The position numbers were made by a program, and so were the translations under genes. From the UHGV virus genome UHGV-0356621: 43,895 bases of DNA; one strand, written 5' to 3'. Positions 698-35,144 of this stretch are shown piece by piece. Source of the DNA: a virus. Below the pieces are notes generated by a model that was not told where the DNA came from, searched no databases, and saw only the letters and a list, made by a program, of their open reading frames with translations. Numbering within the stretch: the first letter of the stretch is position 1; the number at the start of each line of letters is the position of its first letter.

Positions 698-846
698 ACG
701 GCGAAGCATCACCAGATTTTTGATGGTTATAAAAAAGGTTCGTTTAGAACTGGAGGGATGGTGCATGACTATGAAAGACGATGCTATTTAGATAGATAAA
801 CGGCGGGTCTCACTGGTGTGCGGTGATACAGCAAAACCCGTATAGA

Positions 847-1287
847 CTACACCTCTGGAGGAACAGGCCAGTTAACATTCTCGGGGTCGATTGTTACATC
901 AGCCTCTTTAACCTCATTTTTATAGGCCAGCCACGCTGACAACTTCGCTCTGTTGGCGTCGCTGATTTCACCGAGCATCAACTCCGTTCTCCAGTCGAGC
1001 ATAGTGGCGTCAGCTTGATTCAGTAAATGTTGGCGATAGCGCTCTGCTGCGGCCAGTAACTCATCGTAGGTTGGTGTCGGGATATCAACCCATACTGGCT
1101 TCGAATTTTTCGCCCCCAATATTTTCCCAGCAGGAGGAGTTACGCGCCAATATTTCTCGGCATCTTCATTTGAGACCTCAGTTGCATCTTCTGGCCATGT
1201 ATTTTCTGAATATGTGCCATCAGATTTCCATGAAGCAGGAATGAATGAGAGTAATGAGGGAACAAAATATGCGACTGTTTTTGTCAT
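847..1287 (-). CDS. Tail fibre assembly protein (lambda Tfa / P2 gpG-like)
   Basis: C-terminus ...SAWLAYKNEV...VNWPVPPEV resembles the conserved Tfa C-terminus (lambda Tfa ends DIEWPAVPVME); ATG verified; lies directly after the tail fibre gene. Confidence 0.7.
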   Translation of the reverse strand: MTKTVAYFVPSLLSFIPASWKSDGTYSENTWPEDATEVSNEDAEKYWRVTPPAGKILGAKNSKPVWVDIPTPTYDELLAAAERYRQHLLNQADATMLDWRTELMLGEISDANRAKLSAWLAYKNEVKEADVTIDPENVNWPVPPEV

Positions 1288-1288
1288 A

Positions 1289-2449: not shown

Positions 2450-2458
2450 TTTTATTCC

Positions 2459-2761
2459 TTAAGCCCAGACGCGAGCCAGTGTTTTCGGTGCAACCACAAA
2501 GTCGTTCAGCCCGGATAAATCGAGCGAGTCATTCATGACCCGCAAATTGGCGTGATAGCCGGGTTCGGTGGTGTACTTGATAACTTCGTTTTCCTCGCCG
2601 GAATTGATAACTTCAGCAGGAACAGTGATAACGCCGACGATATCCAGGCTGATATCAGGGTGATAAAAACCACCCTGTCCCTCATCATCCACAAACCCCG
2701 CCGCGATTAATTGCGTGCGCATTTGGTTGGCGTCATTAAAGCGCAGATATAAGTCTCTCAT
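2459..2761 (-). CDS. Hypothetical tail-fibre-associated protein
   Basis: 100-aa ORF between the two fibre genes; ATG overlaps the upstream stop (TAATG). No recognisable motif. Confidence 0.4.
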   Translation of the reverse strand: MRDLYLRFNDANQMRTQLIAAGFVDDEGQGGFYHPDISLDIVGVITVPAEVINSGEENEVIKYTTEPGYHANLRVMNDSLDLSGLNDFVVAPKTLARVWA

Positions 2762-4269: not shown

Positions 4270-4297
4270 GGATATTCCTTGAACGATTCACAGGAAA

Positions 4298-5071
4298 TTA
4301 AAACGGCGAATCCCATGCTCCCCGATCGAAACCGGAAACATATTCATCATCGAGGTCGAAACCGAAAAACTGATATCCAGCAGATGGCCTGATAATTTCA
4401 CGGATGCGAACGCCAGCGGGCTTAATAGTCAGATAGCCATTTTTTATTACCCACACCATTTCATTGCTCAGGTCATCAATCGGATTATTGAAATACTGAG
4501 AGGGTGTGTAATCCGCCGGGAGGTCGATAAACGGCCCGCCATTTATAGCCGAGTCTAAAATAAGCCTGTCTGTTGGATTGATAATCGCGTCAGGGTCAGC
4601 GAGAACCCAGACAGACTCTGTCATGTCCAGGTTATCAATTATCGCCATCCTGATGCCGGAGCCAGCCAGCGCCACATCCAGAATATCCGGTATGCTTTCG
4701 TTGCGGCCGTCCCACTGGTTCATTGCCGCCTTGGCATTAAGCACGACACGATAAGTATCGTCGCTTAGCTGCATCAGGCCTTCATCCGGGTCAAATGGCC
4801 CCTGCCAGTTACCGCGATCCCACCCAAGGCTGTCTGTGTCCCAGGAGAAGTAGACGCCGGTTATCGGCGTAGACACCTGCCTGCTGCGGCCGATCCACTC
4901 CCCCAGGATATCCAGTTGGACACCGATGGCTGTGTCCAGGTCAAAGCTGTCAATCAGCCCACCAGTTGCAATATAGGTATCAGTCAGCGGGCGGGTGATC
5001 AGGTCAATGTGCTGCGGGAAGAGTTGCCGGGTCGCGTGATAGTTTGTGATCAGCTCGGTATATTTGCTCAT
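4298..5071 (-). CDS. Baseplate/tail protein (Mu gp48 / P2 gpI position)
   Basis: 257 aa immediately downstream of and overlapping the baseplate J-like gene; assigned by gene order. Confidence 0.5.
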   Translation of the reverse strand: MSKYTELITNYHATRQLFPQHIDLITRPLTDTYIATGGLIDSFDLDTAIGVQLDILGEWIGRSRQVSTPITGVYFSWDTDSLGWDRGNWQGPFDPDEGLMQLSDDTYRVVLNAKAAMNQWDGRNESIPDILDVALAGSGIRMAIIDNLDMTESVWVLADPDAIINPTDRLILDSAINGGPFIDLPADYTPSQYFNNPIDDLSNEMVWVIKNGYLTIKPAGVRIREIIRPSAGYQFFGFDLDDEYVSGFDRGAWDSPF

Positions 5072-6264
5072 GAGGCGGTCACCTTGATGTTTGCCACATC
5101 GCAGTGCGCCGCCTCATCGAACAGAATGGTGATATTGGCTGCTGCGGTAGTGGAAGCGCTTTTCCCGACCTTCAGAGAGGTGATGTCGTAGAACTTGCTC
5201 TCCCCGCCGCTCATTACGCCCAGGTTAGCCGGAGAGTAAACCCGGCTCAGCAGCACGGGGTCGCCGATGCGCAGCGAGTTTATATATTTCGCCACCTCTG
5301 CCTTAATTCTGTCCGCCGTTGAGGTGGTGTAGCCAGGGTAAGTGGTTAACGTGATATCCACGAAAACCTCTACCACTTTCGGGCGCGAGAATCGTATTTT
5401 CTTGGATTCACCATATCGGCCCACCAGGTTTACGGTTGTCGTGCCGAATGGTGTTGTCCCAACATCCTTTTTACCGGCGATCACCGTGGCGATTTCAGTG
5501 GCATCGCCGCCGTCAACGATGCAGCACATAGAATGCGCTGGCAGACCGTTGGAATCGGTAGTTTCAGAGTCGTTCTCATAACTGCGCAGTCGGGTTACGC
5601 CAGTGACGTTAAGCAGCGCCCCGTCCACACCCTCCATGGTGGTTTGTAATGTCAAGGCAGTACTGCGGGCCTGCCGTTCGCGCAGCTGAGCGTCTGTTTC
5701 GCCACTTTCCCCCACGGTTGCTGCAGCCGGGTTATTCACTGTTCTCCACCCGCGCGTCGGCGAGGCTATACGATTTATGGTGTTAGCCAACGCCACCACC
5801 GGGCCAGAAATAGAGCAGGTGGCGGTAACTGTGATAGACTGGGTTTGCGGGATAATCACGCTGGCAGGCAGGTTCCAAACTGTGCCGTTCGCATCACGCA
5901 CACTGCCAGCGGTGATCTGCGTGCCGACGTCGCCTTCAATCACTACGTCTGCCGTGGAGTTGGTCGCCAGCTTCCTGGTAATGCCGTTGATTTTGACGTT
6001 ACTGGACAGCGCCCGCCCCATGCTCGTACTGGGTGAGAACGAGTTATAGGCAGCGATACTGGTGTTGTTCGCGTCATGGATTCCCAGCGCGTAAATCGCC
6101 AGCATTTGTCCGTCTTTGCTGTCTGGTTCGAGGTAGGCATCACTACCGTAAATCTGCCTGAAATAGCTGGTCAGTGTATCAAGGATTGTCTGGTAATCAG
6201 GCGCACTAATCCCCTGGGCGGTTACCGTTGCCGATAGCCCCAGCGTGTCGAGGTTCAAAGCCAT
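5068..6264 (-). CDS. Baseplate J-like protein (Mu gp47 / P2 gpJ family)
   Basis: 398 aa, position and size fit baseplate J; ATG verified. Confidence 0.65.
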   Translation of the reverse strand: MALNLDTLGLSATVTAQGISAPDYQTILDTLTSYFRQIYGSDAYLEPDSKDGQMLAIYALGIHDANNTSIAAYNSFSPSTSMGRALSSNVKINGITRKLATNSTADVVIEGDVGTQITAGSVRDANGTVWNLPASVIIPQTQSITVTATCSISGPVVALANTINRIASPTRGWRTVNNPAAATVGESGETDAQLRERQARSTALTLQTTMEGVDGALLNVTGVTRLRSYENDSETTDSNGLPAHSMCCIVDGGDATEIATVIAGKKDVGTTPFGTTTVNLVGRYGESKKIRFSRPKVVEVFVDITLTTYPGYTTSTADRIKAEVAKYINSLRIGDPVLLSRVYSPANLGVMSGGESKFYDITSLKVGKSASTTAAANITILFDEAAHCDVANIKVTAS

Positions 6265-6618
6265 TTATGCCTCGCTTGTTACAGTCGTCTGGCCGTAGAT
6301 TGTGTCAATGGAGGAAGTGAAGGTGACGCGACGGCTGGTGCCGTCATAATTGGTATCGAAGGAAAGAATCGACAGAACGCCCGGCGTATCCTGTATGCGT
6401 TCGCGTATAGCCAGGATGTAGACGTCAGATCGCTGTTTACCCAGCACTGATTGAACATATGGCGTGCCTTCCGTCAGATCGAGAAACCACTGACCGCGCC
6501 ACAGTTCGAAACGGGTTTTCACGGCCTGGGCGACACACTCCGGACTGTCGATAAGGAAAGTATCGTCACCCTGCCCGAAAGTGTAATCGCCGTCAGCATC
6601 TTCGCGACGGTATCGCAT
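6265..6618 (-). CDS. Baseplate wedge protein (Mu gp46 / gp25-W-like)
   Basis: 117 aa between the spike and J-like genes; GGAGG RBS and ATG verified. Confidence 0.55.
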   Translation of the reverse strand: MRYRREDADGDYTFGQGDDTFLIDSPECVAQAVKTRFELWRGQWFLDLTEGTPYVQSVLGKQRSDVYILAIRERIQDTPGVLSILSFDTNYDGTSRRVTFTSSIDTIYGQTTVTSEA

Positions 6619-6621
6619 AGA

Positions 6622-7260
6622 TTAACCTCCCAGCGGCTTAGTATTGCTTCCGCCGCTCTCAACGCCGCCATGGGTATGCTTATCCACGATAGAACCGTCC
6701 ACCAGCTGCAAGCGACCGTCAGACAGTATTTTGAGCCCGTTAAGGTTGAATCCGCCCGGCGCTGTGCCATTTATTTCCCCGCTGGATGGGTTAAGGCTTA
6801 ATTTTGTACCGCCGTCATCGCTGCGCAGCTCTACCGAACTGGTACTGATGCCGCTGATTTTCTGCGCTTGCGACTGCGGGCCAACGATGGCGAACGCATC
6901 AGATAAGTCATGCTGGCGCGGGTCGACGGTCTCCTGAACGCCGCCGCTCTGCCACCAGAAATCGATGCAACGGTCGGCAAAGATCAGCAGGCACTCGTCG
7001 CCTTCTTTAACCGGAAAGGTCAACGTGCAACCGCCGCCGCGCGGGAAGATGACCGGCACATCCACCAGCGGTTTTAATTCGGTGGAGCCATCGCCAACGA
7101 CACCGCGAAGCGCCACCTCTACCGTGCAGGTAACAGCGTCAGGATCGAACGACTGAATGATGCCGGGCATCGCTACGCGCATCTGGGTAGACACCGAATC
7201 GGCAATGGCCTGCGCGGTCTGCTGCTCGCCGCCGATCTGTGATTGAGTTGGAATTGGCAT
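6622..7260 (-). CDS. Baseplate spike / assembly protein V (Mu gp45-like)
   Basis: 212 aa with a Gly-rich C-terminus and DKHTH motif as in gpV-type spikes; ATG verified. Confidence 0.6.
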   Translation of the reverse strand: MPIPTQSQIGGEQQTAQAIADSVSTQMRVAMPGIIQSFDPDAVTCTVEVALRGVVGDGSTELKPLVDVPVIFPRGGGCTLTFPVKEGDECLLIFADRCIDFWWQSGGVQETVDPRQHDLSDAFAIVGPQSQAQKISGISTSSVELRSDDGGTKLSLNPSSGEINGTAPGGFNLNGLKILSDGRLQLVDGSIVDKHTHGGVESGGSNTKPLGG

Positions 7261-7269
7261 AAAAACCCC

Positions 7270-7294
7270 ATAAAAAAACCCGCTCGGTGGCGGG
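7270..7294 (-). terminator. Rho-independent terminator downstream of the lipoprotein gene
   Basis: Minus-strand hairpin ACCCGC-N6-GCGGGT followed by a T7 run (plus strand shows AAAAAAA ACCCGCTCGGTGGCGGGT). Confidence 0.6.
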
Positions 7295-7326
7295 TTATAA
7301 TTTTCTAAAAATATTAAAGAGCCATT

Positions 7327-8049
7327 TTAAAGTAATCCCATTTTTCTGGCAGCTTCAATATTGTAAACATCTCCACGACCACTACACGGGGCAGCTAATG
7401 TAACCATTTCCACATACCCTTTATTACCTTTCTGTTGGCATATGCTCGCATGCATTTTCGCAAGCCTTGCCGCATGCTCGAAATCTATATAACTATCAAA
7501 CGAAGCTTCACTTAATGCGGTATATTTTGTTTTATCAGGTATGCTATTTATTTTTAACATGCCAGAAAAGTCATTCAACGCTTTAGTTAAATTAGATATG
7601 CAAATATTTTTATAATTAGCATTATCATATGCTGAGGCTCTTTTGCATTCTTCAGCGTATCCAGTGATAGCGATTTGTACACGTCTCATTGTTAAATGAT
7701 AACCACCGACTTTCACATAAACGTTATCCATATTCTGTGAATTTGGATAACGAGTAACAAAGCCCAAATTGTTAAGCGCTCTACTTAGTTCGTTTCCACT
7801 TGAACTTGAAGAATCAACATCTAACTTTTCCACTTCTACTTCAGGGTGTGAAGCTTCGAAATTTTCAGCTTCTTCTTTTTGTTTTTTTAACCGATTTTTT
7901 TGATTTTCATCAACTTGCTTTTCATACTCAACTCTTTCTTTCTCTTTTTGTGCCAGCCATTCCCTTTGTGCATTAACACCATTAGGGTCCCAACTGCATG
8001 AAGTCAAAAACATTGAAAAGAAAATGGGAGTTATTGCAAGCATATTCAT
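7327..8049 (-). CDS. Predicted lipoprotein of unknown function, AT-rich inserted gene (moron)
   Basis: N-terminus MNMLAITPIFFSMFLTSC has a lipobox (LTSC); Lys/Glu-rich coiled-coil segment then a Cys-containing C-terminal domain. The DNA is visibly AT-rich against GC-rich baseplate neighbours. ATG at 8049 (track start 8052 is TTG). Confidence 0.6.
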   Translation of the reverse strand: MNMLAITPIFFSMFLTSCSWDPNGVNAQREWLAQKEKERVEYEKQVDENQKNRLKKQKEEAENFEASHPEVEVEKLDVDSSSSSGNELSRALNNLGFVTRYPNSQNMDNVYVKVGGYHLTMRRVQIAITGYAEECKRASAYDNANYKNICISNLTKALNDFSGMLKINSIPDKTKYTALSEASFDSYIDFEHAARLAKMHASICQQKGNKGYVEMVTLAAPCSGRGDVYNIEAARKMGLL

Positions 8050-8056
8050 CAAAAAT

Positions 8057-9121
8057 TCATCCTGCGGTTTTGTTTATGGACGCTCCTGATTGCAAATCTC
8101 GCGCCCCCCTCGCAAAGCACATCAAATCCATGTACCACGCCTGACCTCTTGTGTCGCCAGTATAGTCGATAGCTTTGACGATATAAACGCCATCTGTAGC
8201 AATGCTGGCAGCCTGTGACGTCGTACCTGTCAGTACGCGGTTGCCGTTCTCTTCCGTCTCGGTGATACGCCCGGGCGACTGCGCGATTTCGCTATTGCCG
8301 AGTGCGGCGCGGTACACTGAAGCCTGATCGAGCTGGATAAGGCCATTAATGCGGATGTTGGGGTTTATCAAACACCGCACGTTTACGCCGCCGCCCATCG
8401 TCTGTTGCGGCATACCGATCAGGCCAGTATCGGCATTCAGCACGATGGCTTCGTGAATATATTTATCCTCCGGCACCATCTGGACCTGACCATCCACCAG
8501 CTGCCATGTCGCTTTGCACTGCGCAGCAATATTATCCATCACGTTACGGGTGGATGAGTAAATCGCGCGGCCACGAGGAAACACGGTATCAGGAAAGTCA
8601 CCGGTTATGCCCTGCGTTACGCCGAACGCGTTGAAATCCTGCATCGTCGCCCGGTGCAGATCCGCAACGGTATAACCGGCTGCAAGCGTGGTGATGGTAG
8701 TCGCATAGAGGAACGCTTCGTGGTCACCAATCGCCTGAATCAACACCCAGGAGTCGGTAATGTTATCCTTCCCGGTGACGGTGAAGCGAATATCACCGTC
8801 AAATATCAGGCCGTAGTTCTGACCGTTCACCTGCCCTACCTGGTCTGGTGAAATCTTCCGGGCGACACCAACCTGGCTCGCATCAACATCCGGCGCAATA
8901 CCGTCATACCCGGCAATGATGCGAATTTTTGCAAACTCCTGCCCCAGTATCTTGTTCGTGGTATCGGTCGAAAGGTTGTAAATTTTCACGTTCGCCACTC
9001 GCGGCCAGCGTGTATCTGCCCACTCGATCTGGAACGTGACCTTAAAATCAGACAGGGAAACGCCCTGCCCGTTCTGGTCCAACAGTTGCAGCTCAAAATG
9101 GCGCATCCAGTTAAGAGACAT
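8057..9121 (-). CDS. Tail/baseplate hub protein (Mu gp44 / P2 gpD position)
   Basis: 354 aa between the tape-measure-proximal tail genes and the spike; assigned by gene order; ATG verified. Confidence 0.5.
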   Translation of the reverse strand: MSLNWMRHFELQLLDQNGQGVSLSDFKVTFQIEWADTRWPRVANVKIYNLSTDTTNKILGQEFAKIRIIAGYDGIAPDVDASQVGVARKISPDQVGQVNGQNYGLIFDGDIRFTVTGKDNITDSWVLIQAIGDHEAFLYATTITTLAAGYTVADLHRATMQDFNAFGVTQGITGDFPDTVFPRGRAIYSSTRNVMDNIAAQCKATWQLVDGQVQMVPEDKYIHEAIVLNADTGLIGMPQQTMGGGVNVRCLINPNIRINGLIQLDQASVYRAALGNSEIAQSPGRITETEENGNRVLTGTTSQAASIATDGVYIVKAIDYTGDTRGQAWYMDLMCFARGARDLQSGASINKTAG

Positions 9122-26199: not shown

Positions 26200-26274
26200 T
26201 GGCGGGACAGGAAGGATTCGAACCTTCGACCATTCGGTTAACAGCCGAACGCACAACCGCTGTGCTTCTGACCC
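26200..26274 (-). tRNA. tRNA-like gene, putative tRNA-Asn (anticodon GUU), 75 nt with encoded CCA
   Basis: Minus-strand cloverleaf by eye: acceptor GGGTCAG/CTGTCCC (one T:T mismatch), D stem GCAC/GTGC, anticodon stem TTCGG/CCGAA with loop CTGTTAA, T arm GAAGG-TTCGAAT-CCTTC, discriminator G, CCA. Position 8 is A rather than the usual U. Confidence 0.55.
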
Positions 26275-26371: not shown

Positions 26372-26869
26372 TTAAATTGCAAGCACGTTGTGTGATTTAT
26401 TTGCAATTTTCCTCACATTTTCGCGATCGTTAAACGCATTTTGAAGCGGTTGGTATAAACAGAACAATGAAGCATTGATTATTTGCTTCACCTCTCTACG
26501 GATTGTCGAGATGCTTGGGTGTTTGTACTGATTGCCGCCACGCGTCTTCATAAGGCGAGGCTTACTTACTGCATGCTGCCATGATGCAATTCGGATCTCG
26601 CTGGAGTTGCAGACGTAGTAGGCGAAGATAACCCGCCAGGCATTTTCATCCACATTCTTCAGATAGTGACGAATGACAGCATCAATGAGCATCCCGTCAT
26701 CATCACTACATACCGGTCGTGATGCTTGCTGGGGCTCGACGGTAGCCATGAATCTGGCAATCATGTTGATCATCGCTTTATCAATCTTGCCGGTCTGGCA
26801 CCATGCGCCCCACAACTGGAGCCACTGGTCTACCCATTGATGCTGGTCGTTGGTTAATTCCAGTTTCAT
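26372..26869 (-). CDS. Q: Late-gene antitermination protein Q (Phage_antitermQ-type)
   Basis: Motifs LWGAWCQTG, VCSDDDGMLID and FAYYVCN resemble the WGAW / CCDDDAM / YY signature of this Q family; located just before terminator, tRNA and lysis genes. Confidence 0.7.
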   Translation of the reverse strand: MKLELTNDQHQWVDQWLQLWGAWCQTGKIDKAMINMIARFMATVEPQQASRPVCSDDDGMLIDAVIRHYLKNVDENAWRVIFAYYVCNSSEIRIASWQHAVSKPRLMKTRGGNQYKHPSISTIRREVKQIINASLFCLYQPLQNAFNDRENVRKIANKSHNVLAI

Positions 26870-26981: not shown

Positions 26982-27623
26982 TCATGCGGACTCCTTCTGC
27001 TTTGGTCCGCGATATTCACCATACAGAGGTGCTCTTCCTCTTGGCCTGGTATGCCTGTGGGTTACTTTGGGAGAAAAAAGCGCATCCTCTACATTCATTC
27101 CATTTTTTAGTCGACGCTTGATGGATGTTTCTGATACTGAAACGCGAGGATCCCTTGACCATTCTGTGGCGGTTTTCGTTTCGCCATTAAAAGTTATGGC
27201 TGTGCGTCCTTTTTTTGTGTGCTCAGGGATATGCACTCGAGATCGCATGACATTACACGCCCTGCACAGCACCCTAAGATTTGAGTCCGCATTGTTATCA
27301 ACAACCTCATCAATGTGATCAATATGCGCGGTTTTCCATGTGACCTCCTTGCCGCATTTTTCGCATGGTGGAAGTGTTTCTCCATAACGGTCGTAAACAA
27401 CTTTTCGGTGCTCATATACGCAACCATTCGCCATTGATAGTGGGTGATCAGGAATTTTGAGCATTTGATATCCTTTCGCATTTTTATGCCTGAATTTCCC
27501 TTTACCGTTTTTTGTGAGTTCGTAGGTCCCGTAGCGCATCATTCGGAAGTAGTGCATTTGACAGATACCCTTCCCTGGGTAGTGTTTGCATTCACGATCA
27601 CAACCTTCAACTTTGCATTTCAT
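26982..27623 (-). CDS. HNH homing endonuclease
   Basis: Cys-rich N-terminus and HNH motif HIDHIDEVVDNNADSNLRVLCRACN; C-terminal DNA-binding-like segment; ATGA overlap with NinG. Confidence 0.75.
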   Translation of the reverse strand: MKCKVEGCDRECKHYPGKGICQMHYFRMMRYGTYELTKNGKGKFRHKNAKGYQMLKIPDHPLSMANGCVYEHRKVVYDRYGETLPPCEKCGKEVTWKTAHIDHIDEVVDNNADSNLRVLCRACNVMRSRVHIPEHTKKGRTAITFNGETKTATEWSRDPRVSVSETSIKRRLKNGMNVEDALFSPKVTHRHTRPRGRAPLYGEYRGPKQKESA

Positions 27624-28267
27624 GCTGCACTCTCCTGTAATTTTTGACGGCGCTTCATCAGTGCACTGGCCCTGCGGGAAAAAATTGCTTTCACCCGCTT
27701 CAGGTAGGTAACGTCAAACCGGCGTGGGGCATTGTCAGCTTCGAGCCGCTCTACGCGCTCAAGGCCAATGCGATTAACCAGGCGGATCCGGTACTCGACA
27801 GCATTACCGCTCAACTGTCGGTTACAGCGGGTGCAAGCGGAGTGGACGTTAAACACGTTGAATTTGAGGTGTGAGGCAGCGCCGCGTGAACGGTAATGGC
27901 TGGCGTCAATGGCGCTGCCAGTCAGGTAATTGCTTTTTCCCATAAGTGGATTGCCGCAACTGACACATGGCTTACCTTCATCGCGGATCCGGATGTAGCG
28001 ATTGAAAGCTGATTGAGCCTCTTTATCCCACTGAGATTTAGACTTGAGTGACTCACGCTTGGCCTTACGGCGTTTGCGCCCGGCCTTCTCTGCCTCCTTC
28101 TGCTCTTTGATGCGCTTCGCCGCGGCCTTAACCTTCTCCTTTTCGCGCTCTTCCATCGCGAGGATTGCGCCGTGCTCCGGGCTGCACCAGCGGATCCGGA
28201 TATCGTGGAATTTCGGCACGAAGTATTCCCCGCATACTTTGCACTTACGGCGGGATGGTTTACGCAT
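27620..28267 (-). CDS. ninG: NinG (Rap) recombination protein
   Basis: [11 protein letters not shown]...WCSPEHG N-terminus, central basic K/E/R stretch, and ...SGN.V.YR..L..RIG..V matching lambda NinG; ATG at 28267. Confidence 0.8.
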
Positions 28268-28928
28268 GTTCACCGCCTTGCACCTTTACCAGCGTGAGGT
28301 TTCCGCAGAACACGGCGCCGGTGTCGATGTACATCTGGTTGGCATACTTCAGGGGCTGGCGCGCTGGGGTGTGGCCGAAGATAAACAGATCAGCACCGGC
28401 TATCGTCGATACAATGCCGTCCTGTGCGTCGCTAACCCTCTCACGATTCCAGATGACCATATCTTTCGGGATGGGCTTATCGAACGCATATTCGTTATGC
28501 GGGTAGTCAGCGTGGCAGATAACGATTTTACGCTCAGCGGTAACCAGCTCGATGACGAGTGGCAGCTCAGCTGCTTTGTGAACCAGAGCCTTAGCCAGCA
28601 CTTCTTTGTCATAGTCGAGATTGAAGAACCAGCCGCCACCATTTGCCAACCAGTGATTGACGTTTCCATACTCCGATAGCCCATCAATCATCATCTGCTC
28701 ATGGTTGCCACGAACAGCACGGAACCACGGCATAGTAATCAGATCCAGGCATTCGACGTTTTCCGCGCCGCGGTCAACAAGGTCTCCAACCGAAATCAGC
28801 AAATCGCACGCAGGGTCGAACGAAACTTTTTCGAGCTCATTCATCAGCAGGGTGTAGCACCCATGCAGATCGCCGACAACGAAGATATTGCGCCAGTCAG
28901 CGCCATTAATGCGTTGATACATGCTCAT
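28260..28928 (-). CDS. Ser/Thr protein phosphatase (lambda NinI-like)
   Basis: GDLHG, GDLVDRG and GNHE metallophosphatase motifs; ATG at 28928 after GAGGAGAAAA. Confidence 0.85.
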
Positions 28929-29095
28929 GCGGATTTTCTCCTCGCCGCGAGACGCAGCCATTTCTGATCCACCAGGCGGGCGGTGTAGCCCTTCAGTGTC
29001 GGGATGTCGGACGGCTTAACCGCGGGCTTGCGCTGGCGGCGCGCCGGAACGCGGAAGATTTCGTTTGTGATGACGCGTGCGAGAGGGTTATTCAT
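28925..29095 (-). CDS. Small hypothetical nin-region protein (56 aa), translationally coupled on both sides
   Basis: [27 protein letters not shown]...; its ATG overlaps the NinB stop and its TGA overlaps the phosphatase ATG (ATGA overlaps). Below the 60-aa track cutoff. Confidence 0.45.
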
Positions 29096-29529
29096 GCAAG
29101 CCTCCCAAAGTAATCGCCACGATAACGGACATCGCGAAGTTGGATGTTCTGGCTGACGGCGAAAGCCTGGGTGTACTCAATCAGGCTGTTCATCCTTTTG
29201 ATCCCCATCGATGAGGTGCTTTCGCGAATTGCCACCAATTCTCCCTCAAGTCCGGCAATAACCTTCCCCCGCCCGCCAGTGGCAATGGAGTGACCGGAAA
29301 CCAAAATTGATTTCCACGACGGAAGCGACCACGCAGAGCCAGCCCACTGAATGCGATGCTTTGCCAGATCGCCGCAAAGCGCGTGGAACAGTGAATTCTG
29401 AGGAAGAGTGCGCTTAGGGTCGGCAAAACTCACCACGAGCGGGAAATCTGCGTTTACAGGCTGCTTGTTGATGTAGTCGATGAGGTTGCGGCGAACCTGC
29501 TCATCACGTAGGTAGAATTTGATACTCAT
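29092..29529 (-). CDS. ninB: NinB (Orf) recombination protein
   Basis: PKRTLPQNSLFHALCGDLAKH...W.G..W.L.SWK resembles the lambda NinB RSLDQN...LGDV core; ATG at 29529 with GGAGGTG RBS. Confidence 0.7.
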   Translation of the reverse strand: MSIKFYLRDEQVRRNLIDYINKQPVNADFPLVVSFADPKRTLPQNSLFHALCGDLAKHRIQWAGSAWSLPSWKSILVSGHSIATGGRGKVIAGLEGELVAIRESTSSMGIKRMNSLIEYTQAFAVSQNIQLRDVRYRGDYFGRLA

Positions 29530-29740
29530 ACGCCACCTCCGAGAGGTAACGCAGAATGCAGAAAATCGCAGGTGCATTTCTGCATCTGTGACAAGGTGAG
29601 GATTTCAGATTGTGGTCGCATTTAAGTCCCCTTAAATGCGAAGAAGTCACCGGAGTTGTTCAGGCTCCGATGACTTAATTATGGATGGATGATTATTGGA
29701 AATCAAACGTTGCTTGACGTTTAGTTATGCGTCGAATGGG

Positions 29741-29995
29741 TTAGGTATTATGTGATACCACTGTTGGCGAACTGAGTGGGTAGGCGACGCCGATAGGGTG
29801 CTTGCCATTGCAGATAAAACACCGCATCTCGCTAAGCACCTGAGGAGAGGTAGTGATCGTCTTCGGATGATCGTCCTCGCTCAATGCATCACGGAACGCT
29901 ACCGCAACAACCTTCCCGCCGAAAGCCTCCATGTGGGCATGCACTGGCGGCTCCTTGCCGTCTTCAAACTCAATGACGAAAGTTAACTTACCCAT
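29741..29995 (-). CDS. Hypothetical protein
   Basis: 84 aa; ATG verified; TAATG overlap with the upstream gene. Confidence 0.4.
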   Translation of the reverse strand: MGKLTFVIEFEDGKEPPVHAHMEAFGGKVVAVAFRDALSEDDHPKTITTSPQVLSEMRCFICNGKHPIGVAYPLSSPTVVSHNT

Positions 29996-30576
29996 TACGC
30001 CTCCTGCTGCGGTGCTGCTGGCAGCGATTTAATCCAAGCGGCTGCCAGAAGACGACTCCACGCATCCTTAGAATCCTCAGCGCCGTAATCAATAATCGAG
30101 TCGAATTCGTCTAGAATGGCTATCGTAGGTTCAACCGGCACCGCAACCCAACCATCCGGAATCACCGGAGAGTTGAGTTGTTCGGAATTACCGAACGACT
30201 GAAGCATGGCGGCGCGGCAGGCGTTCCAGCCGACAGCTTTTCCGTGTTCAAACGCGCTGTCAAAGTCATCATCAATTTCCATCGCAGCGGGCACAGATAC
30301 CGGCGCTGGCGGGGCGGTGTAGAGAGTACGAGTGTCCTCACCGTCGCTGCTAAGGCGAATCATTTCATCCTCGTCTACGTCAGACCAGGTATCATCGCTG
30401 TTGCCGTAGACTTGATGCACAGCCTCCGCTTCGAGCGATGCCAGCGCGATACGCGCATTATTAATCAGGAGGCTATCAGCAGGAGATAAAACAACATGAG
30501 CGTTACCATCCGCATCAATTTCAGAATTCGTAATTTTTCTGAACAGCTTTGCCAGTTCTTTGGTAATATTGCTCAT
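29995..30576 (-). CDS. Hypothetical acidic protein
   Basis: 193 aa; ATG with GGTGAGGA RBS. Confidence 0.45.
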   Translation of the reverse strand: MSNITKELAKLFRKITNSEIDADGNAHVVLSPADSLLINNARIALASLEAEAVHQVYGNSDDTWSDVDEDEMIRLSSDGEDTRTLYTAPPAPVSVPAAMEIDDDFDSAFEHGKAVGWNACRAAMLQSFGNSEQLNSPVIPDGWVAVPVEPTIAILDEFDSIIDYGAEDSKDAWSRLLAAAWIKSLPAAPQQEA

Positions 30577-30579
30577 GGG

Positions 30580-31011
30580 TTAGTCCTCACCTTTCTGTTG
30601 CACTACCGGAACCGATAAATCGACGCACCAGGAGATAACGCCGAATTGATCATCGTTCTGCGCTTCACCCCAAACGTAATATTTTGATCCTGGCCGACCC
30701 ATTGCCGGGTCAAATACTTCTATGCCGCGTTCTGCCGTTAACGACATCAGAATCTGATGCAGGCCGCCTTTGATGTTCAGTGACGGAACGGTCAGGAAGT
30801 AAATAAACCCGTAAAGCAATTCGGCCTTGCGCTGGCTTCCGTAAAAATACGGGATTTTGTAATAATCCAGCGCGTCGTCGAGCCAGTCTGTTTTGTCGTG
30901 GAATTTCTGATGCCAGCGTTCCACTACCTCATCGACAGGTTGACCGGCAACCATTGCAACGCAGGTAGCCATGCAGGTGTTAAATGTTGGCTGCATTTGA
31001 TGTTGAAGCAT
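30580..31011 (-). CDS. Hypothetical protein with conserved Cys/His (possible thiol hydrolase fold, speculative)
   Basis: 143 aa; N-terminal FNTCMATCVAMV and later GGLHQ; ATG at 31011. Confidence 0.4.
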   Translation of the reverse strand: MLQHQMQPTFNTCMATCVAMVAGQPVDEVVERWHQKFHDKTDWLDDALDYYKIPYFYGSQRKAELLYGFIYFLTVPSLNIKGGLHQILMSLTAERGIEVFDPAMGRPGSKYYVWGEAQNDDQFGVISWCVDLSVPVVQQKGED

Positions 31012-31724
31012 CACTCCCCCTTACCGATGCCAGCGGCGCGGTCTATGCGTTCGATTTCAGCCAGAATTAAAGCCCCTGCTTTTACCAGGTTGCGACGGCG
31101 GGCATTTGGCTTCCACCATGAAGCATCCCAAGGCCACCCCCACGGCTTGCCACCATTGCGGTTAACAGTTCCTGTTTCGTTTATGTAACAAACCGCCGCC
31201 ATTGCCAGTTCCCCGTTGCAGTGTTCGTCATCATGCTCAGGCGTCCATCCCTCAACTGATTGATGGCGTTGACGCTCTGCAATTACTGACTGAACGGCAT
31301 TGGATAGCGATTTCACACCCTGCGCACGCACTTCAGCCAGGAAAGCGTCGGTGGCTGGGGTTTTGGCATTCTCCAATAATGCTATTGAATCCTGAGCGTC
31401 ACAAAGACGTAATAGTGCGTCCATTTGCTCGCCATCAGCGTCATAGCTGAATAGACCATGATCATCATGATGTGCTTCCATATTTTCTGAGGCCTGCAGT
31501 ATTCCAGACTTCAGCCCAGCATTCTCCACAGCCAGCGCCGCGCACTTGGCCTCAAGGTTATCAATCGTGATTCCAGCAGAACGACACTCCCGCAACGCCG
31601 TTTCTAGTTTTGATTCAAGTTCACCGAACTTACGGACAAGATATTCAGCGTTTGTTTCGTTAACCTTTAAATCTCGTGGAATGCACTTGCCACGCAGAAA
31701 ACCTTCCATCTCAAATAATTTCAT
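31011..31724 (-). CDS. Hypothetical phage protein with Trp-rich C-terminal domain
   Basis: 237 aa from the ATG at 31724 (strong GGAGGG RBS); C-terminus KPWGWPWDASWWKP...RNLVKAGALILAEIERIDR looks like a conserved phage domain I cannot name with confidence. Confidence 0.45.
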   Translation of the reverse strand: MKLFEMEGFLRGKCIPRDLKVNETNAEYLVRKFGELESKLETALRECRSAGITIDNLEAKCAALAVENAGLKSGILQASENMEAHHDDHGLFSYDADGEQMDALLRLCDAQDSIALLENAKTPATDAFLAEVRAQGVKSLSNAVQSVIAERQRHQSVEGWTPEHDDEHCNGELAMAAVCYINETGTVNRNGGKPWGWPWDASWWKPNARRRNLVKAGALILAEIERIDRAAGIGKGE

Positions 31725-32065
31725 ACCCCTGCCCTCCCCCAAACCATCAATACTCGCTTCATCGCCGCGCTGTTGCGGCACTCCTGGCAGATCACGTTTG
31801 CCTCTGTACGCTGCACCAGCTTCGAATTTCCCTTCGGCATAGCCGGGATTGTTTCTGGTGCGTATTTCATGCCGTAATCGGTCAGCCGATAAAGCCGCTG
31901 TCCGTGCTTGCCTTCGAACTCGATCAAGCCGTCTGCCAGCAGCGTGCTCACCGTTCCGGATATCTTTTTGGTGGTCATGCCGATCATGCTGGCAATACGA
32001 GCACTGTTCAGGCACGGGTTGTTACGCAGGGCTGCCAGCACCTGCTCACGGATTGTTATGTTCAT
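31721..32065 (-). CDS. Hypothetical DNA-binding (winged-helix-like) protein
   Basis: 114 aa from the ATG at 32065; LAALRNNPCLNSARIASMIGMTTKKISGTVSTLLADGLIE resembles a winged helix; coupled to P upstream and to the next gene downstream. Confidence 0.4.
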   Translation of the reverse strand: MNITIREQVLAALRNNPCLNSARIASMIGMTTKKISGTVSTLLADGLIEFEGKHGQRLYRLTDYGMKYAPETIPAMPKGNSKLVQRTEANVICQECRNSAAMKRVLMVWGRAGV

Positions 32066-32066
32066 G

Positions 32067-32756
32067 TCACACCATCCCGTTCGACTTGTTGCGGTTGTAC
32101 TTGGCCAGCAGCAGCTGGATCGGCGTCGGCCCTTGCTCGGCAGCTGGTGCGGCAATAGCCCGGCGTACCGGCGGCACTGGCTTACCCTCGGTGACGCGCC
32201 TTTCCCACATGTCCAGCAGATCGCCTGCCTCGCGTGCCAGTTCACCATGCGTTAACTGGCGCTCGGTGCTGCGGTGGCGCAATTCTACGCAAATGTGGTA
32301 CATGACCGGCTGCGACCATGGAAATTGCTCGCTGGAGATGAATTCGAACGAGCGGTTACGCCAGTCCCAGTATTCGGCGATCACCTGGTCAACGTTGACG
32401 CCCAGCGCGCCGCCGCTCTGCTTGCACCAGGCGACGAACTGGCCCGGCGACGGCAGGAATGGGCGCTCCTGGCGGCGGGCAATGCGCATGCCGGCATCGA
32501 CCTGAGCCATGGTGTGGATCCCGTTCTCCTGAAACGCCAGCAGCCACTGACGGCGGAATTCGTTCAGGTCTTCCTGGGTGCGGAAGTTCGCCATGCTGGC
32601 CGGGAACGCGGCGCGCAGCTCGTTGAACAGCTTGTTGAATACCTGCGCTACCTGCTCGACCGGTGCACGTTCCTGGTACTGCTCTGGCAGGTTATGGGCC
32701 ATGCGGCTCATCTGCTCGCGGTCGTGGTTACGCATCTGCTCTGCAAGAGATTTCAT
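32067..32756 (-). CDS. P: Replication protein P (helicase loader)
   Basis: Closely matches lambda P: MKSLAEQMRNHDREQMSRMAHNLPEQY... and RPFLPSPGQFVAWC identical to the lambda motif. Confidence 0.9.
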   Translation of the reverse strand: MKSLAEQMRNHDREQMSRMAHNLPEQYQERAPVEQVAQVFNKLFNELRAAFPASMANFRTQEDLNEFRRQWLLAFQENGIHTMAQVDAGMRIARRQERPFLPSPGQFVAWCKQSGGALGVNVDQVIAEYWDWRNRSFEFISSEQFPWSQPVMYHICVELRHRSTERQLTHGELAREAGDLLDMWERRVTEGKPVPPVRRAIAAPAAEQGPTPIQLLLAKYNRNKSNGMV

Positions 32757-33685
32757 CGCATCACCTCATAGGCCCAGTCAGTGTTGTTGAAGTCCAGATC
32801 CGGCTTGCCAGATTCTTCGCCTGTCTGCTGCTTGTTGCGTTTGATATCGAGCTGAGTCCACTTGTCGCGCAGCGTTGCCGGACATAGAACATTTCCCTTC
32901 CAGAACTTGTCGTTACAGGCCCATTTGAACAGGGCAGCAATTTCGTAGTGGGTGCGATCGTCACGCTCGCGCATCAGGCGGATGTCGTTAGCCCACGCTG
33001 CATAGTTTGGTTTTTTGGCAGATGGTGAAATGCTTTGCACCATGGTGAACAGCCATTCCGCGCAGCGAAGGTCTTCAGAGTTACCCCACTTTGTGCCGCT
33101 CTGAATTGCCGCTTCAGGTTTCATGACAGGCGGTTTCTTTCCGGGCTTGTCAGAGGATTCGTCAGAATTCTCGGACGTAGAGTTATTTATATTCTTGTTA
33201 TTACCTTCTTGTTCATGATGTGCGGGGAATTGTGCGGCCTTATGTGCGGCATACCCATCTGAACCCGCGCCGTTACTGACTTCATCATGTGCGCCTGTAT
33301 GTGCGGCTTTATGTGCGGGTAAATCGTCCATTTTTTGAGCATATTCGACGTAATTTGTGATGGTGATCACCCTGCCTTTTCGTTTCTCTCCCTCGATGGA
33401 AATCATCCCTTCGCGGACGAAAACTGACAGCATTCTCTCCACAGCGTCGCGGCTTGTCGGGTTGCCCTGACGGTCACACAACTGAAGGCCAAGATCTGCA
33501 GCAGTGACGACCAGTTGACCGGGTTGCAGAGGCCATTGCTTGCCCTTGAAGAATGCCGTGTATGGCTGTCTGGCTGCGTCAATGAGCAGGTTCTCCCACA
33601 GCGCGCGCAGGAACACATCCTTAGCCCAGGACTTCTTCTTGATGCTCCGGTACAACGGGACGTAACCAGACTTCTGGTTCTCCAT
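32753..33685 (-). CDS. O: Replication initiator O-like protein containing the iteron origin
   Basis: Directly upstream of P, with iteron repeats inside the coding sequence as in lambda O; ATG at 33685 with AAGGAG RBS (track start 33742 is GTG). Confidence 0.65.
   Translation of the reverse strand: MENQKSGYVPLYRSIKKKSWAKDVFLRALWENLLIDAARQPYTAFFKGKQWPLQPGQLVVTAADLGLQLCDRQGNPTSRDAVERMLSVFVREGMISIEGEKRKGRVITITNYVEYAQKMDDLPAHKAAHTGAHDEVSNGAGSDGYAAHKAAQFPAHHEQEGNNKNINNSTSENSDESSDKPGKKPPVMKPEAAIQSGTKWGNSEDLRCAEWLFTMVQSISPSAKKPNYAAWANDIRLMRERDDRTHYEIAALFKWACNDKFWKGNVLCPATLRDKWTQLDIKRNKQQTGEESGKPDLDFNNTDWAYEVMR
33181..33320. repeat. Candidate origin of replication: about six TGTGCGG iterons plus adjacent AT-rich stretch inside the O-like gene
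   Basis: ATGTGCGG-like motif recurs at roughly 10-20 bp spacing between 33214 and 33320; AT-rich GAGTTATTTATATTCTTGTTATTACC at 33180-33206. Confidence 0.65.
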
Positions 33686-33867
33686 CCTGTTGCTCCTTGC
33701 GGCTGAGTGCGCCGCGAAATTTGCGTAAGCGACGTTCGACACAGTTAAACCTCCTGCGCCTGGCGTTTTGGATTAGCGTTTGTCATAATGACCTCGCAAT
33801 TGACTGACGTTTGTTGCACCAGAAAGCCGGTTCTGTTCGCGCAGACCGGCTTTTCCCCTTTCTACGT

Positions 33868-34089
33868 TCATGCTTCAAAATCTCCCTTCTCTCCATCCCT
33901 GTTCGAAATCAGGATGGCAAGCAGCAGCGACATGTTCGGTACCAGGTTTTCCCGCCACCGGCTGACTGTGGATTTGTTGATGCCAGCTACTTCGGCTATC
34001 CGGGCGGTACCCAGATCAGCGATTTGCCGCTGCACCCAGCTCTCAATTCGTCGTGCCTCCGCTTTGTTGCGTGTCGTTAAGGTCTCCAT
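33868..34089 (-). CDS. cII: CII-like transcriptional activator
   Basis: NKAEARRIESWVQRQIADLGTARIAEVAGINKSTVSRWRENLVPNMSLLLAIL aligns with lambda CII (NEALRIESALLNKIAMLGTEKTAEAVGVDKSQISRWKRDWIPKFSMLLAVL). Confidence 0.8.
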   Translation of the reverse strand: METLTTRNKAEARRIESWVQRQIADLGTARIAEVAGINKSTVSRWRENLVPNMSLLLAILISNRDGEKGDFEA

Positions 34090-34116: not shown

Positions 34117-34350
34117 TTATGCCGCGGTATTTCGCGGCGAGGCAAAAACCAGGCTCTCTTTGAGCACCGGATCCTGGCGGTGAAATTTTTTTGTGGCATC
34201 TTCGATAGCCGATGCCATTTCTGGTGATGCGCGACGATTTCCGTAAGCGATCTGGTCCAGATAACCTGGCGTTGTGTTTGCCAGTTTTGCGAGCTGCGCC
34301 CATTCGTCTGTAGTGGCGCCCTTACGCCAGCGATGCAGTTCAGTACTCAT
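34117..34350 (-). CDS. cro: Cro-like repressor (YdaS/Cro-type HTH)
   Basis: 77-aa HTH protein divergent from cI across an operator region and followed by cII. Confidence 0.6.
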   Translation of the reverse strand: MSTELHRWRKGATTDEWAQLAKLANTTPGYLDQIAYGNRRASPEMASAIEDATKKFHRQDPVLKESLVFASPRNTAA

Positions 34351-34382
34351 TGGTGTCTCCGGTTGAGTCGTTTGATTTGGAG

Positions 34383-34448
34383 TTTAGCGTTATGCTAAAT
34401 ACTACGCAAGCAACATTTAGCAATTTGCACATTTATCATTTTGCTAAA
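34383..34448. promoter_or_regulatory. OR-like operator cluster with divergent promoters, 17-bp sites TTTAGC-N5-GCTAAA
   Basis: Perfect site 34383-34399 TTTAGCGTTATGCTAAA; second site 34432-34448 TTTATCATTTTGCTAAA; weaker half-site at 34416-34432. Confidence 0.6.
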
Positions 34449-34466
34449 AGCAGTAACAATGCAGGG

Positions 34467-35144
34467 ATGGAAAATAAAGAAATCAGAAAAGCCAACCTGG
34501 AAGCGCTGTATGAGAAGCGCCAGCACGAGTCTGGAATGACAAAGGCGCAGTTCGCCGAGCTCATCGAGACAAGTCCGGCTGCGCTTAGCCAGCTGCTGGG
34601 ACCAAACCCTCATCGCAATATCGGCGATAAGATGGCTCGCAAAATTGAAAGTGCGCTTGATCTGCCTTTTGGTTGGATGGATGTTTTACACACCAGTGAA
34701 GAACCTTCGAACGTTGCATTTCGAGGACTGAACGAGACAAAAGGAAGTTATCCTGTAATCAGCTGGGTAAGCGCGGGGCAATGGATGGAAGCTGTAGAAC
34801 CTTATCACCGAAGAGCGATAGATCGCTGGTATGACACGACTGTTGACTGCTCAGAAGATTCATTCTGGCTGGACGTTAAAGGGGATTCTATGACCTCCCC
34901 GGCTGGACTGAGCATACCCGAGGGAGCAGCGATACTTGTTGATCCTGAAGTCGAGCCGCGCAACGGAAAGCTGGTTGTCGCGAAGCTAGAAGGCGATAAC
35001 GAAGCGACCTTTAAGAAGCTTGTAATCGATGCCGGCAGACGCTTCCTAAAGCCCCTTAACCCCGCATATCCAATGCTAGAAATTAATGGAAACTGCAAAA
35101 TCATCGGCGTTGTGGTTGATGCCAAAATACTAAACATCCCATAA
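34467..35144 (+). CDS. cI: CI repressor (N-terminal HTH, C-terminal S24 LexA-like autopeptidase domain)
   Basis: HTH segment MTKAQFAELIETSPAALSQL; C-terminal GDSMTSP (Ser nucleophile) and later Lys; ATG at 34467. Confidence 0.85.
   Translation: MENKEIRKANLEALYEKRQHESGMTKAQFAELIETSPAALSQLLGPNPHRNIGDKMARKIESALDLPFGWMDVLHTSEEPSNVAFRGLNETKGSYPVISWVSAGQWMEAVEPYHRRAIDRWYDTTVDCSEDSFWLDVKGDSMTSPAGLSIPEGAAILVDPEVEPRNGKLVVAKLEGDNEATFKKLVIDAGRRFLKPLNPAYPMLEINGNCKIIGVVVDAKILNIP

Follow-up and report, generated by a model that had tools for sequence, protein, structure and literature searches.

The ren-ninB slot of a lambdoid prophage holds a mosaic accessory cassette with a gene for a predicted stand-alone C39-like cysteine peptidase

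The window analyzed here is a 43,895-nt stretch of lambdoid prophage DNA (UHGV-0356621) of the phi80/HK225 type. Pfam and PHROGs searches gave the gene order cI, cro, cII, O, P, ren, A, B, C, D, NinB, phosphatase, NinG, HNH, and Q. Positions 29741–31724 contain four minus-strand ORFs in the pR early operon, referred to here as genes A to D. Gene A (31011–31724) encodes 237 aa, gene B (30580–31011) is a free-standing ORF of 143 aa, gene C (29995–30576) encodes 193 aa, and gene D (29741–29995) encodes 84 aa. The initial annotation described these as four tightly coupled ORFs, and its coordinates and lengths were exact. The ren stop overlaps the A start (ATGA), the A stop and B start are joined as TGATG, 3 nt lie between the B stop and the C start, and the C stop overlaps the D start (TAATG). 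A purine-rich Shine-Dalgarno-like run precedes each of the four starts. Genes A to D are translationally coupled to one another and to ren, and in a sequence scan promoter- and terminator-like sites were not enriched inside the block. Given this coupling with ren and the absence of a standout internal promoter or terminator, the four genes would be expected, on sequence grounds, to be co-transcribed with O, P, and ren and expressed alongside them early in infection or after induction.

The left boundary of the cassette is a ren-like winged-helix gene of 113 aa (31721–32062, minus strand). The four ORFs had been placed where lambda has ren, but this gene lies directly upstream of them. It matches PHROG 142, "Ren-like exclusion protein" (E 5.8e-29), has weak wHTH matches in Pfam, and is 100% identical to HK225 DNA annotated as a Ren-like protein. 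Both its homology to the Ren family and its position after P (Pfam Phage_lambda_P) identify it as Ren-like. The cassette occupies the interval between ren and ninB rather than taking the place of ren. The right flank is ninB (29092–29529, minus strand; Pfam NinB, E 4e-35). The right boundary of the variable slot is a conserved minus-strand hairpin followed by a U-rich tract (29645–29675), a possible tR2-like terminator with an RNA fold of -20.3 kcal/mol (z = -3.1). The hairpin was absent from the output of a consensus terminator scan; its loop is 9 nt, versus the 3–8 nt allowed. It sits in a junction sequence of about 150 bp upstream of ninB that is common to the prophages of Escherichia coli KCJ3K291 and ABWA45 and to phage HK639.

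Homologous proteins were found for all four ORFs, with PHROG E-values of 1e-13 to 1e-57; A to D are therefore genes and not chance ORFs. Searches of Pfam, NCBIfam, and PADLOC and single-sequence searches of the PDB gave nothing significant for any of them, and the initial statement that the ORFs could not be assigned was fair from sequence alone. It no longer holds for B, which active-site conservation and fold mark as a predicted C39-like cysteine peptidase, or for A and C, which resemble Ea22/EaA-type mosaic proteins. It is extremely unlikely that A to D are decaying or spurious, functionless frames of a defective prophage. That reading draws on related prophages, in which neighboring genes sometimes carry pseudogene annotations; in KCJ3K291 these are fragments of HNH and DUF551 genes. 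Against it, the four frames are intact and coupled, each behind a ribosome-binding site, and full-length homologs of each gene occur in other genomes. B itself is 99.5–100% identical in eight E. coli genomes, and its family is conserved across distant phages.

The position had been described as a variable region for accessory genes, and genome comparison bears this out. The gene sets between ren and ninB/ybcN are quite different in HK639 and in E. coli prophages, and slot content differed in every genome examined. Genes seen there elsewhere include eae-like, DNA polymerase III theta, HNH, ead/Ea22-like, and DUF551 genes. The initial annotation held that its view would fail if the block were universal across relatives or had housekeeping homology. 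A search of phage records and of 5,426 complete E. coli genomes yielded no copy at ≥80% coverage of the block, and homology to housekeeping phage functions appeared for none of the four ORFs. The closest contig found (L012) is 98.4% identical across ren-A-B and then diverges in C-D. Mosaicism also extends into the genes themselves. Residues 1–137 of A recur with many different C-termini, and its C-terminal domain recurs behind N-termini annotated as Ead_Ea22, Lar, DUF551, DUF3850, and HNH. In other E. coli prophages, the N-terminal module of C is joined to DUF551. B lies beside the Trp-rich domain only within an Escherichia/Enterobacter clade and has different neighbors in other clades. Each of the four genes thus moves independently, as one of the modules that are usual in the exo-xis or "ea" region of lambda- and P22-like phages.

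We consider it likely that positions 29741–31724 form a mosaic accessory cassette, not essential to the phage, that occupies the ren-ninB slot in the pR delayed-early operon of a lambdoid prophage, together with the module readings and the mechanism for B that follow. Its non-essential status is inferred from arrangement and variability. As a swappable accessory region the cassette is ordinary in kind; it adds one more case to the well-known mosaic lambdoid accessory slots and changes nothing conceptually.

Gene A has two separable parts, each with independent recombination partners. Residues 1–137 (31314–31724, minus strand) form an N-terminal module matched by phrog_614, phrog_583, phrog_492, and phrog_368. 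Weak bZIP and ZapB coiled-coil matches over residues 33–83 are the evidence for a probable central coiled coil. Residues 138–237 and the stop codon (31011–31313, minus strand) encode a portable C-terminal domain. In Ea22 proteins of lambda and Stx phages, the N-terminus varies, a coiled coil follows, and the C-terminal domains are portable and mutually unrelated (PMC10834534). A is probably built likewise: its N-terminal module would lead through a coiled-coil stalk to the portable Trp-rich domain. A did not match Pfam Ead_Ea22 (PF13935) at E ≤ 1, and BLAST detected no sequence similarity to lambda Ea22. Its relatives P0147 (58% identity) and P0117 (59%) pass Ead_Ea22, as does lambda Ea22.

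The C-terminal domain of A is Trp-rich, as was noted initially. It holds 6 Trp, and W197, W199, and W203 are nearly invariant in the motif ER.RQ..EGW..hDD..GEL..AA.CY...WPW..WWKP..RR.LvKAgALiLAEIERIDR. The domain was found in 1,877 protein clusters and in 171 phage records, the latter from phages of Pseudomonas, Rhodobacter, Xanthomonas, Burkholderia, and Microbacterium. It is at or near the C-terminus in most of the 84 host proteins examined (82–647 aa). Its fusion partners are mostly unannotated and so give no functional clue, and profile searches of Pfam and the PDB returned no match. A MazG/DUF550-type NTP pyrophosphohydrolase was considered for this domain and rejected; Pfam and PDB profile searches gave no match, and hhalign against a PF04447 protein gave a probability of 0.2%. 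Conserved acidic residues suggest that the domain could be an enzyme rather than a binding module. This module of Ea22-type proteins is widespread and portable and has no annotated structure or function, which makes it a sensible candidate for structural work.

The Ea22 likeness raises the reading that A, and possibly also C, adjust the choice between lysis and lysogeny, or prophage induction, via host partners, with B and D as passengers. We regard this lysis-lysogeny role as unlikely. It is encouraged by the three-part build that A shares with Ea22 (the coiled coil being probable), by the close relatives that pass Ead_Ea22, and by the many Ea22-family proteins that carry exactly the Trp-rich domain of A (P0222 is on 101 contigs). 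A pro-lysogenic role has been published for Ea22 of lambda and Stx phages (PMC7093339, PMC10834534). However, A lies in the pR operon and not in the pL exo-xis region, and has no detectable similarity to lambda Ea22. The lambda Ea22 C-terminal domain alone fails to reproduce the phenotype, and the C-terminal domains of variants are unrelated (PMC10834534); Ea22 function therefore need not transfer to A.

Gene C encodes an acidic (pI 4.1) EaA-like mosaic protein, as judged by its sequence matches, whose C-terminal half is an alternative module. With tblastn, it is 51% identical over its full length to HK639 gp59, which also lies at the ren-ninB site, and residues 1–134 are 51% identical to the "EaA protein" of mEp043; SPN3UB "Eaa" and Sf6 gp21 were also matched. 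DNA encoding the N-terminal module (approximately residues 1–126) matches E. coli genes annotated as DUF551, and Pfam did not detect the DUF551 domain itself in C. PHROG matches were phrog_60, phrog_12449, and phrog_660. A and C most likely would act as oligomeric scaffolds that offer interchangeable C-terminal domains to host partners, by analogy with the proposal for lambda and Stx-phage Ea22.

Gene D encodes a predicted small CxxC/His protein that travels with EaA-type genes. It has a CxxC..H motif (RCFICNGKHP) and a conserved N-terminal 41 aa, the only part covered by phrog_3876 and phrog_6925. A copy 88% identical occupies the same place in E. coli KCJ3K291. Another, 65% identical, follows EaA in Salmonella phage 66FD with the same overlapping junction.

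Gene B carries the conserved Cys/His pair noted initially: Cys13 and His85 are invariant across 94 relatives of 24–59% identity. The sole invariant columns in that alignment are Q7, C13, H85, D101, and P102. The predicted active-site codons, all on the minus strand, are Gln7 (30991–30993), Cys13 (30973–30975), His85 (30757–30759), and Asp101 (30709–30711). Pfam Peptidase_C39 (PF03412) is matched by 23 of the 94 relatives at E ≤ 0.1 (best E 2.4e-6), and the copy in the window did not match it even at E ≤ 1. This makes B a divergent relative of that family rather than one of its curated members. A B profile aligned to LahT150 (6mpz) paired the Q/C, H, and D residues with the same 6- and 16-residue spacings, in a weak match (E 1.2). 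In that alignment, Q7, C13, H85, and D101 correspond to LahT150 Q21, C27, H101, and D117 (numbering counted from the alignment).

A first structural model of B, built from 19 close homologs, had a pLDDT of 56 and was discarded. The 94-sequence alignment was used instead and gave a model with a pLDDT of 95.6 and a pTM of 0.89, in which Cys13 lies at a helix start. Foldseek matches for the model had E-values of only about 3e-3 and TM-scores of about 0.5, and sequence identity to solved C39 domains is 14–18%. Structural neighbors include Gly-Gly-directed enzymes (C39 peptidases, Josephins, UfSP, and PLpro). The hallmarks of clan CA papain-like peptidases are present: an alpha+beta fold, a Cys at a helix N-terminus in the model, and the order Q-C-H-D. 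From sequence and model, B is predicted to be a cysteine peptidase of C39-like papain fold that stands alone in the cytoplasm and keeps an intact putative Gln-Cys-His-Asp active site, an assignment made by fold and active-site pattern and not by sequence membership. B could instead be a catalytically inert C39-like domain that binds and does not cut, like the C39-like domain of HlyB-type transporters. This is very unlikely, since the active-site residues are columns that never vary in the 94 relatives, which is enzyme-like and not what a degenerate binding domain would show, and since inactive C39-like domains score below active peptidase domains in the structural comparison.

The B family, phrog_4049, numbers at least 712 representatives (50% identity) from phages that infect Enterobacterales, Pseudomonas, Erwinia, and Bacillus. 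The BFVD holds phage homologs, one of which is named "Peptidase C39 domain-containing protein." B was found in 9 of the 5,426 complete E. coli genomes. Members of this family, until now "hypothetical proteins," can be annotated as putative C39-like cysteine peptidases that stand alone and have a defined active site. The peptidase is the sole lead in the cassette worth testing, and C13A and H85A substitutions provide a simple mutational handle on the role of an early phage protease in the host cytoplasm.

In the proposed mechanism, Cys13 would be activated by His85 and Asp101, and Gln7 would form the oxyanion hole. B would most likely cut a host or phage protein or peptide at a specific site; this site would probably follow a Gly-Gly-like motif of small residues, as it does for the closest structural relatives of B. 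This cleavage specificity is extrapolated, since no substrate, transporter, or double-glycine-leader gene was found near B; no transporter was found in the neighborhoods of B homologs either. Candidate partners of B were also considered. A functional pair of A and B was rejected; it does not fit phage Dewey, in which the gene after the Trp-rich-domain gene is no B homolog, or Serratia, in which the gene upstream of B lacks the Trp-rich domain, and HMM scans confined the adjacency to one closely related enterobacterial lineage. A conserved neighbor as the substrate of B was set aside, with flanking genes mutually unrelated in four contexts. D looks a poor candidate for a double-glycine substrate; on visual inspection, the residues ahead of its Gly26-Gly27 do not match the double-glycine leader pattern.

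An anti-defense or host-takeover island, in which at least one of the four proteins neutralizes host immunity, is a possibility that we consider fairly unlikely. B might, for example, cleave a defense protein or strip off a Gly-terminal conjugate, and restriction alleviation might be the role of the Trp-rich domain. The genes are variable and rare (as the E. coli count for B illustrates) and presumably expressed early, and the Gly-Gly-directed enzymes among the structural neighbors of B fit this reading. Circumstantial hints are the Lar-type restriction-alleviation N-termini fused to the Trp-rich domain in some phages, and one B homolog situated in a series of small accessory genes, one of them Tad2-like. 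The neighborhood hints are single cases, however, and the neighbors of B are not conserved. In the searches made, no match of A to D to a characterized anti-defense protein came up, and PADLOC, which models defense systems and not anti-defense proteins, was negative for all four at E ≤ 1. No paper on such a protein was found, literature searches on phage C39 proteases and phage deubiquitinases returned nothing relevant, and none of the papers retrieved for C39 and prophages mentions C39. A bolder version, which we consider quite unlikely, is that the large B family acts in the host cytoplasm on Gly-Gly-type linkages, for instance to remove the ubiquitin-like or cGAS-type C-terminal conjugates that the immune systems Bil and type II CBASS make, or cuts a host defense or regulatory protein and, separately, that the Trp-rich domain of A, with its invariant Glu, Asp, and Arg, is a new enzyme fold across phages of many bacterial phyla. 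If true, B would represent a new class of enzymatic counter-defense.

The preferred reading, a mosaic accessory cassette with a predicted peptidase, can be set beside four known systems. Unlike the double-glycine leader peptidase (C39) domains of PCAT/AMS ABC transporters (ComA PEP, PCAT1, and LahT150), B is a free-standing, presumably cytoplasmic phage protein and not the N-terminal domain of an ABC exporter, and it has no gene for a bacteriocin- or pheromone-type double-glycine precursor or for a transporter nearby. A resembles Ead/Ea22 proteins (PF13935) in its variable N-terminus, probable coiled coil, and interchangeable C-terminal domain, and many PF13935 proteins carry its Trp-rich domain. 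It differs in lacking a PF13935 match and BLAST similarity to lambda Ea22, in having a C-terminal domain with no sequence match in the PDB, although the structure of the lambda Ea22 C-terminal domain is solved, and in lying between ren and ninB in the pR operon and not in the pL exo-xis region. Among EaA/Eaa proteins of P22-like phages and DUF551-type prophage proteins, C shares its N-terminal 126–134 residues with the "EaA protein" of mEp043 and with E. coli genes annotated as DUF551; it differs in lacking the DUF551 domain and in the acidic sequence of its C-terminal half. Short internal motifs of C recur in EaA of Salmonella phages, and similarity to P22-type EaA is patchy. The slot in E. 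coli prophages differs in holding HNH, Ead/Ea22, B, and DUF551 genes, and that of HK639 in holding an eae-like gene, two hypothetical genes (one of them the C homolog), DNA polymerase III theta, and a small hypothetical gene. The HK639/phi80 slot is nevertheless alike in its flanks, with P and ren on one side and ninB/ybcN on the other, in the conserved junction upstream of ninB, and, in HK639, in carrying a full-length homolog of gene C at the ren-ninB site.

The four ORFs examined here, A to D, lie within a canonical lambdoid early-right operon, identified by Pfam and PHROG scans. Genes in this part of the window are on the minus strand, with the cI-like gene on the plus. The minus-strand genes include a cro-like gene (34117-34350), cII (33868-34089), O (32753-33742), P (32067-32756), NinB (29092-29529), a calcineurin-like phosphatase (28260-28961), NinG (27620-28273), and a Q-type antiterminator (26372-26869) with a tRNA-Asn (GTT) directly downstream (26200-26274, minus strand). 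A 213-aa HNH endonuclease gene between ninG and Q (26982-27623, minus strand) is likely another mobile insertion in the nin region. The plus-strand cI-like repressor (34350-35144) is listed as a 264-aa ORF with a TTG start. Its real start is probably further downstream, since its HTH_3 domain starts as late as residue 53, with Peptidase_S24 starting at residue 135. The closest phages at the DNA level are phi80, HK225, and HK639.

The four ORFs are encoded in the order A (237 aa, 31011-31724), B (143 aa, 30580-31011), C (193 aa, 29995-30576), and D (84 aa, 29741-29995), all on the minus strand. Coordinates and lengths agree exactly with the initial annotation, and homologues exist for all four, so the ORFs are not a chance pattern. 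They are tightly coupled: the junctions are ATGA (ren/A), TGATG (A/B), a 3-nt spacer (B/C), and TAATG (C/D), and a purine-rich ribosome-binding site precedes every start. A consensus scan did not find promoter- or terminator-like sites to be enriched inside the block. The block had been placed where lambda has ren, which does not hold. The ORF directly upstream of A, a 113-aa winged-helix gene (31721-32062, minus strand), matches PHROG 142 "Ren-like exclusion protein" (E 6e-29), and the Ren-like stretch is 100% identical to HK225 DNA annotated as Ren-like protein. The cassette therefore fills the ren-ninB interval. It would be transcribed from pR with O, P, and ren, early after infection or induction, and would be dispensable.

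The cassette is mosaic. A 2.6-kb query spanning the block reached at least 80% coverage in no phage record and in 0 of 5,426 complete E. coli genomes, where the top match, KCJ3K291, was covered to 71%. Gene sets between ren and ninB/ybcN differ among KCJ3K291, ABWA45, and phage HK639, and include ead/Ea22-like, HNH, DUF551, eae-like, DNA polymerase III theta, and small hypothetical genes. The proposal of a variable accessory region is thus borne out. The closest IMG/VR contig found (IMGVR_UViG_3300045988_027743, 2288-5664) has 98.4% identity over ren-A-B, diverges across C and D, and is similar again, at 75%, in ninB. This alignment places a recombination breakpoint near the B/C boundary. As a mosaic accessory slot in a lambdoid prophage, the region is of an ordinary kind; what is new is the combination of genes it holds, which come from known but functionally unstudied families.

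A conserved junction of ~150 bp upstream of ninB (29560-29700, minus strand) is common to the KCJ3K291 and ABWA45 prophages and phage HK639, and may be the right-hand recombination boundary of the slot. It contains a hairpin (29645-29675, minus strand; -20.3 kcal/mol, z = -3.1) with an 11-bp stem followed by UUCUUCGCAUUU, a U-rich tract, which may be a tR2-like terminator. Just upstream, both E. coli prophages also have a classical GGCCTC-TTCG-GAGGCC terminator followed by a T-run, which is missing at this site.

C is very acidic (pI 4.1). Its first 126-134 residues are 51% identical to the mEp043 "EaA protein" and also match the N-termini of E. coli DUF551-annotated genes; C lacks the DUF551 domain and has a different C-terminal half. 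A homologue of C over its full length (51%) occupies the ren-ninB slot of HK639 as well. The N-terminal 41 residues of D are a shared PHROG module. D and its full-length relatives (including L095 2501-2755) retain RCFICNG(K/R)HPIGVA (CxxC..H) and PPVHA.MEA, a pattern that suggests D as a candidate small metal-binding protein. A 65% identical copy of D directly follows the EaA gene in Salmonella phage 66FD, with the same overlapping stop/start, and a relative with 88% identity lies immediately upstream of ninB in KCJ3K291. C and D therefore behave as an EaA-type pair.

B belongs to phrog_4049, a "hypothetical protein" family. A word-indexed search retrieved only 27 close relatives, all unnamed and from Enterobacterales. 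Searching 1.84 billion representatives with a profile retrieved 712 proteins at E <= 0.001, ~130-160 aa long in most of the 150 matches listed. Among 94 of these (24-59% identity to B), only Gln7, Cys13, His85, Asp101, and Pro102 are invariant; the Cys/His pair noted initially is Cys13 and His85. Pfam Peptidase_C39 was matched by 23 of the 94 (best E 2.4e-6). Against PDB sequences, the profile weakly matched the double-glycine protease LahT150 (6mpz, E 1.2), with Gln, Cys, His, and Asp paired at equal spacings (Q-C 6 and H-D 16 residues). Further structural neighbours are staphopains, Josephins, UfSP, and coronavirus PLpro, and the top Foldseek families for the B model agree with the other structural comparison. 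The closest BFVD entries are uncharacterised Pseudomonas and Erwinia phage proteins, together with one from a Bacillus phage named "Peptidase C39 domain-containing protein". The model supports a papain-type fold and active site, and B is in all probability an active peptidase of this fold and a relative of family C39. Invariance confined to the active site makes a role as an inert binding protein unlikely. The nucleophile of this predicted peptidase is residue 13, too close to the N-terminus for a signal peptide to fit; with no transporter partner either, B should act in the cytoplasm. Through Cys13, it would cut a cytoplasmic protein or peptide at a specific site, probably after a small, Gly-Gly-like motif by analogy with its nearest structural relatives.

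B is rare, being found in 9 of 5,426 complete E. coli genomes, and its neighbourhoods vary by clade. The homologue adjoins a methylase-like gene in one Serratia prophage and lies next to the integrase in the early-left region of another. On a 140-kb contig (ENA ERZ27259644 k141_23837, 726-8216), it sits in a long run of tiny unannotated genes with Tad2-like (anti-Thoeris family), YunG-like, and HAD_PNKP genes, apparently an accessory or counter-defence-type stretch in a large phage. Across these settings, the genes that flank B are mutually unrelated. An anti-defence role of the cassette is possible, though the hints are circumstantial.

A has >7,600 related clusters, and pairwise mapping splits it in two: residues 1-137 occur with many C-termini, and residues 138-237 behind many N-termini. 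Relatives of 58-59% identity pass the Pfam Ead_Ea22 model, whose span on lambda Ea22 is the N-terminal region plus the coiled coil. A falls short of this model and has no BLAST similarity to lambda Ea22. The Trp-rich C-terminal domain recognized initially corresponds to residues 138-237. Its motif is ER.RQ..EGW..hDD..GEL..AA.CY...WPW..WWKP..RR.LvKAgALiLAEIERIDR, in which conservation of the LAEIERID stretch is inflated by a collection scan partly seeded with that peptide. This domain is found across 1,877 protein clusters, and 171 phage records contain it, chiefly from phages of Pseudomonas, Rhodobacter, Xanthomonas, Burkholderia, and Microbacterium. It is at or near the C-terminus in most of 84 examined host proteins (82-647 aa). 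Searches of Pfam and PDB, including a profile search, found no relatives. Few of its fusion partners can be recognised; they are Ead_Ea22, Lar, DUF551, DUF3850, and an HNH-annotated N-terminus. Phage Dewey has the domain at the end of a gene annotated as HNH endonuclease. In KCJ3K291, a frame of 355 codons from stop to stop (4219-5283), located upstream of the B homologue, has it at residues 256-350, and an annotated HNH pseudogene fragment (4468-4929) lies inside this interval; the domain may thus be an HNH fusion there, as in Dewey.

These results re-annotate phrog_4049-type proteins as stand-alone C39-like peptidases and delineate a widespread orphan Trp-rich domain. Ea22 is pro-lysogenic and is described as a variable N-terminus, an oligomerising coiled coil, and unrelated "portable" C-terminal domains (PMC10834534). 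By analogy, A could influence the choice between lysis and lysogeny. A and C would be oligomeric scaffolds that show swappable C-terminal domains to host partners, and the build of A suits the published three-part picture of Ea22. B is a divergent stand-alone C39 relative and not a curated member: unlike those of family C39, it lacks a transporter partner, and the window copy has no match to Pfam Peptidase_C39.
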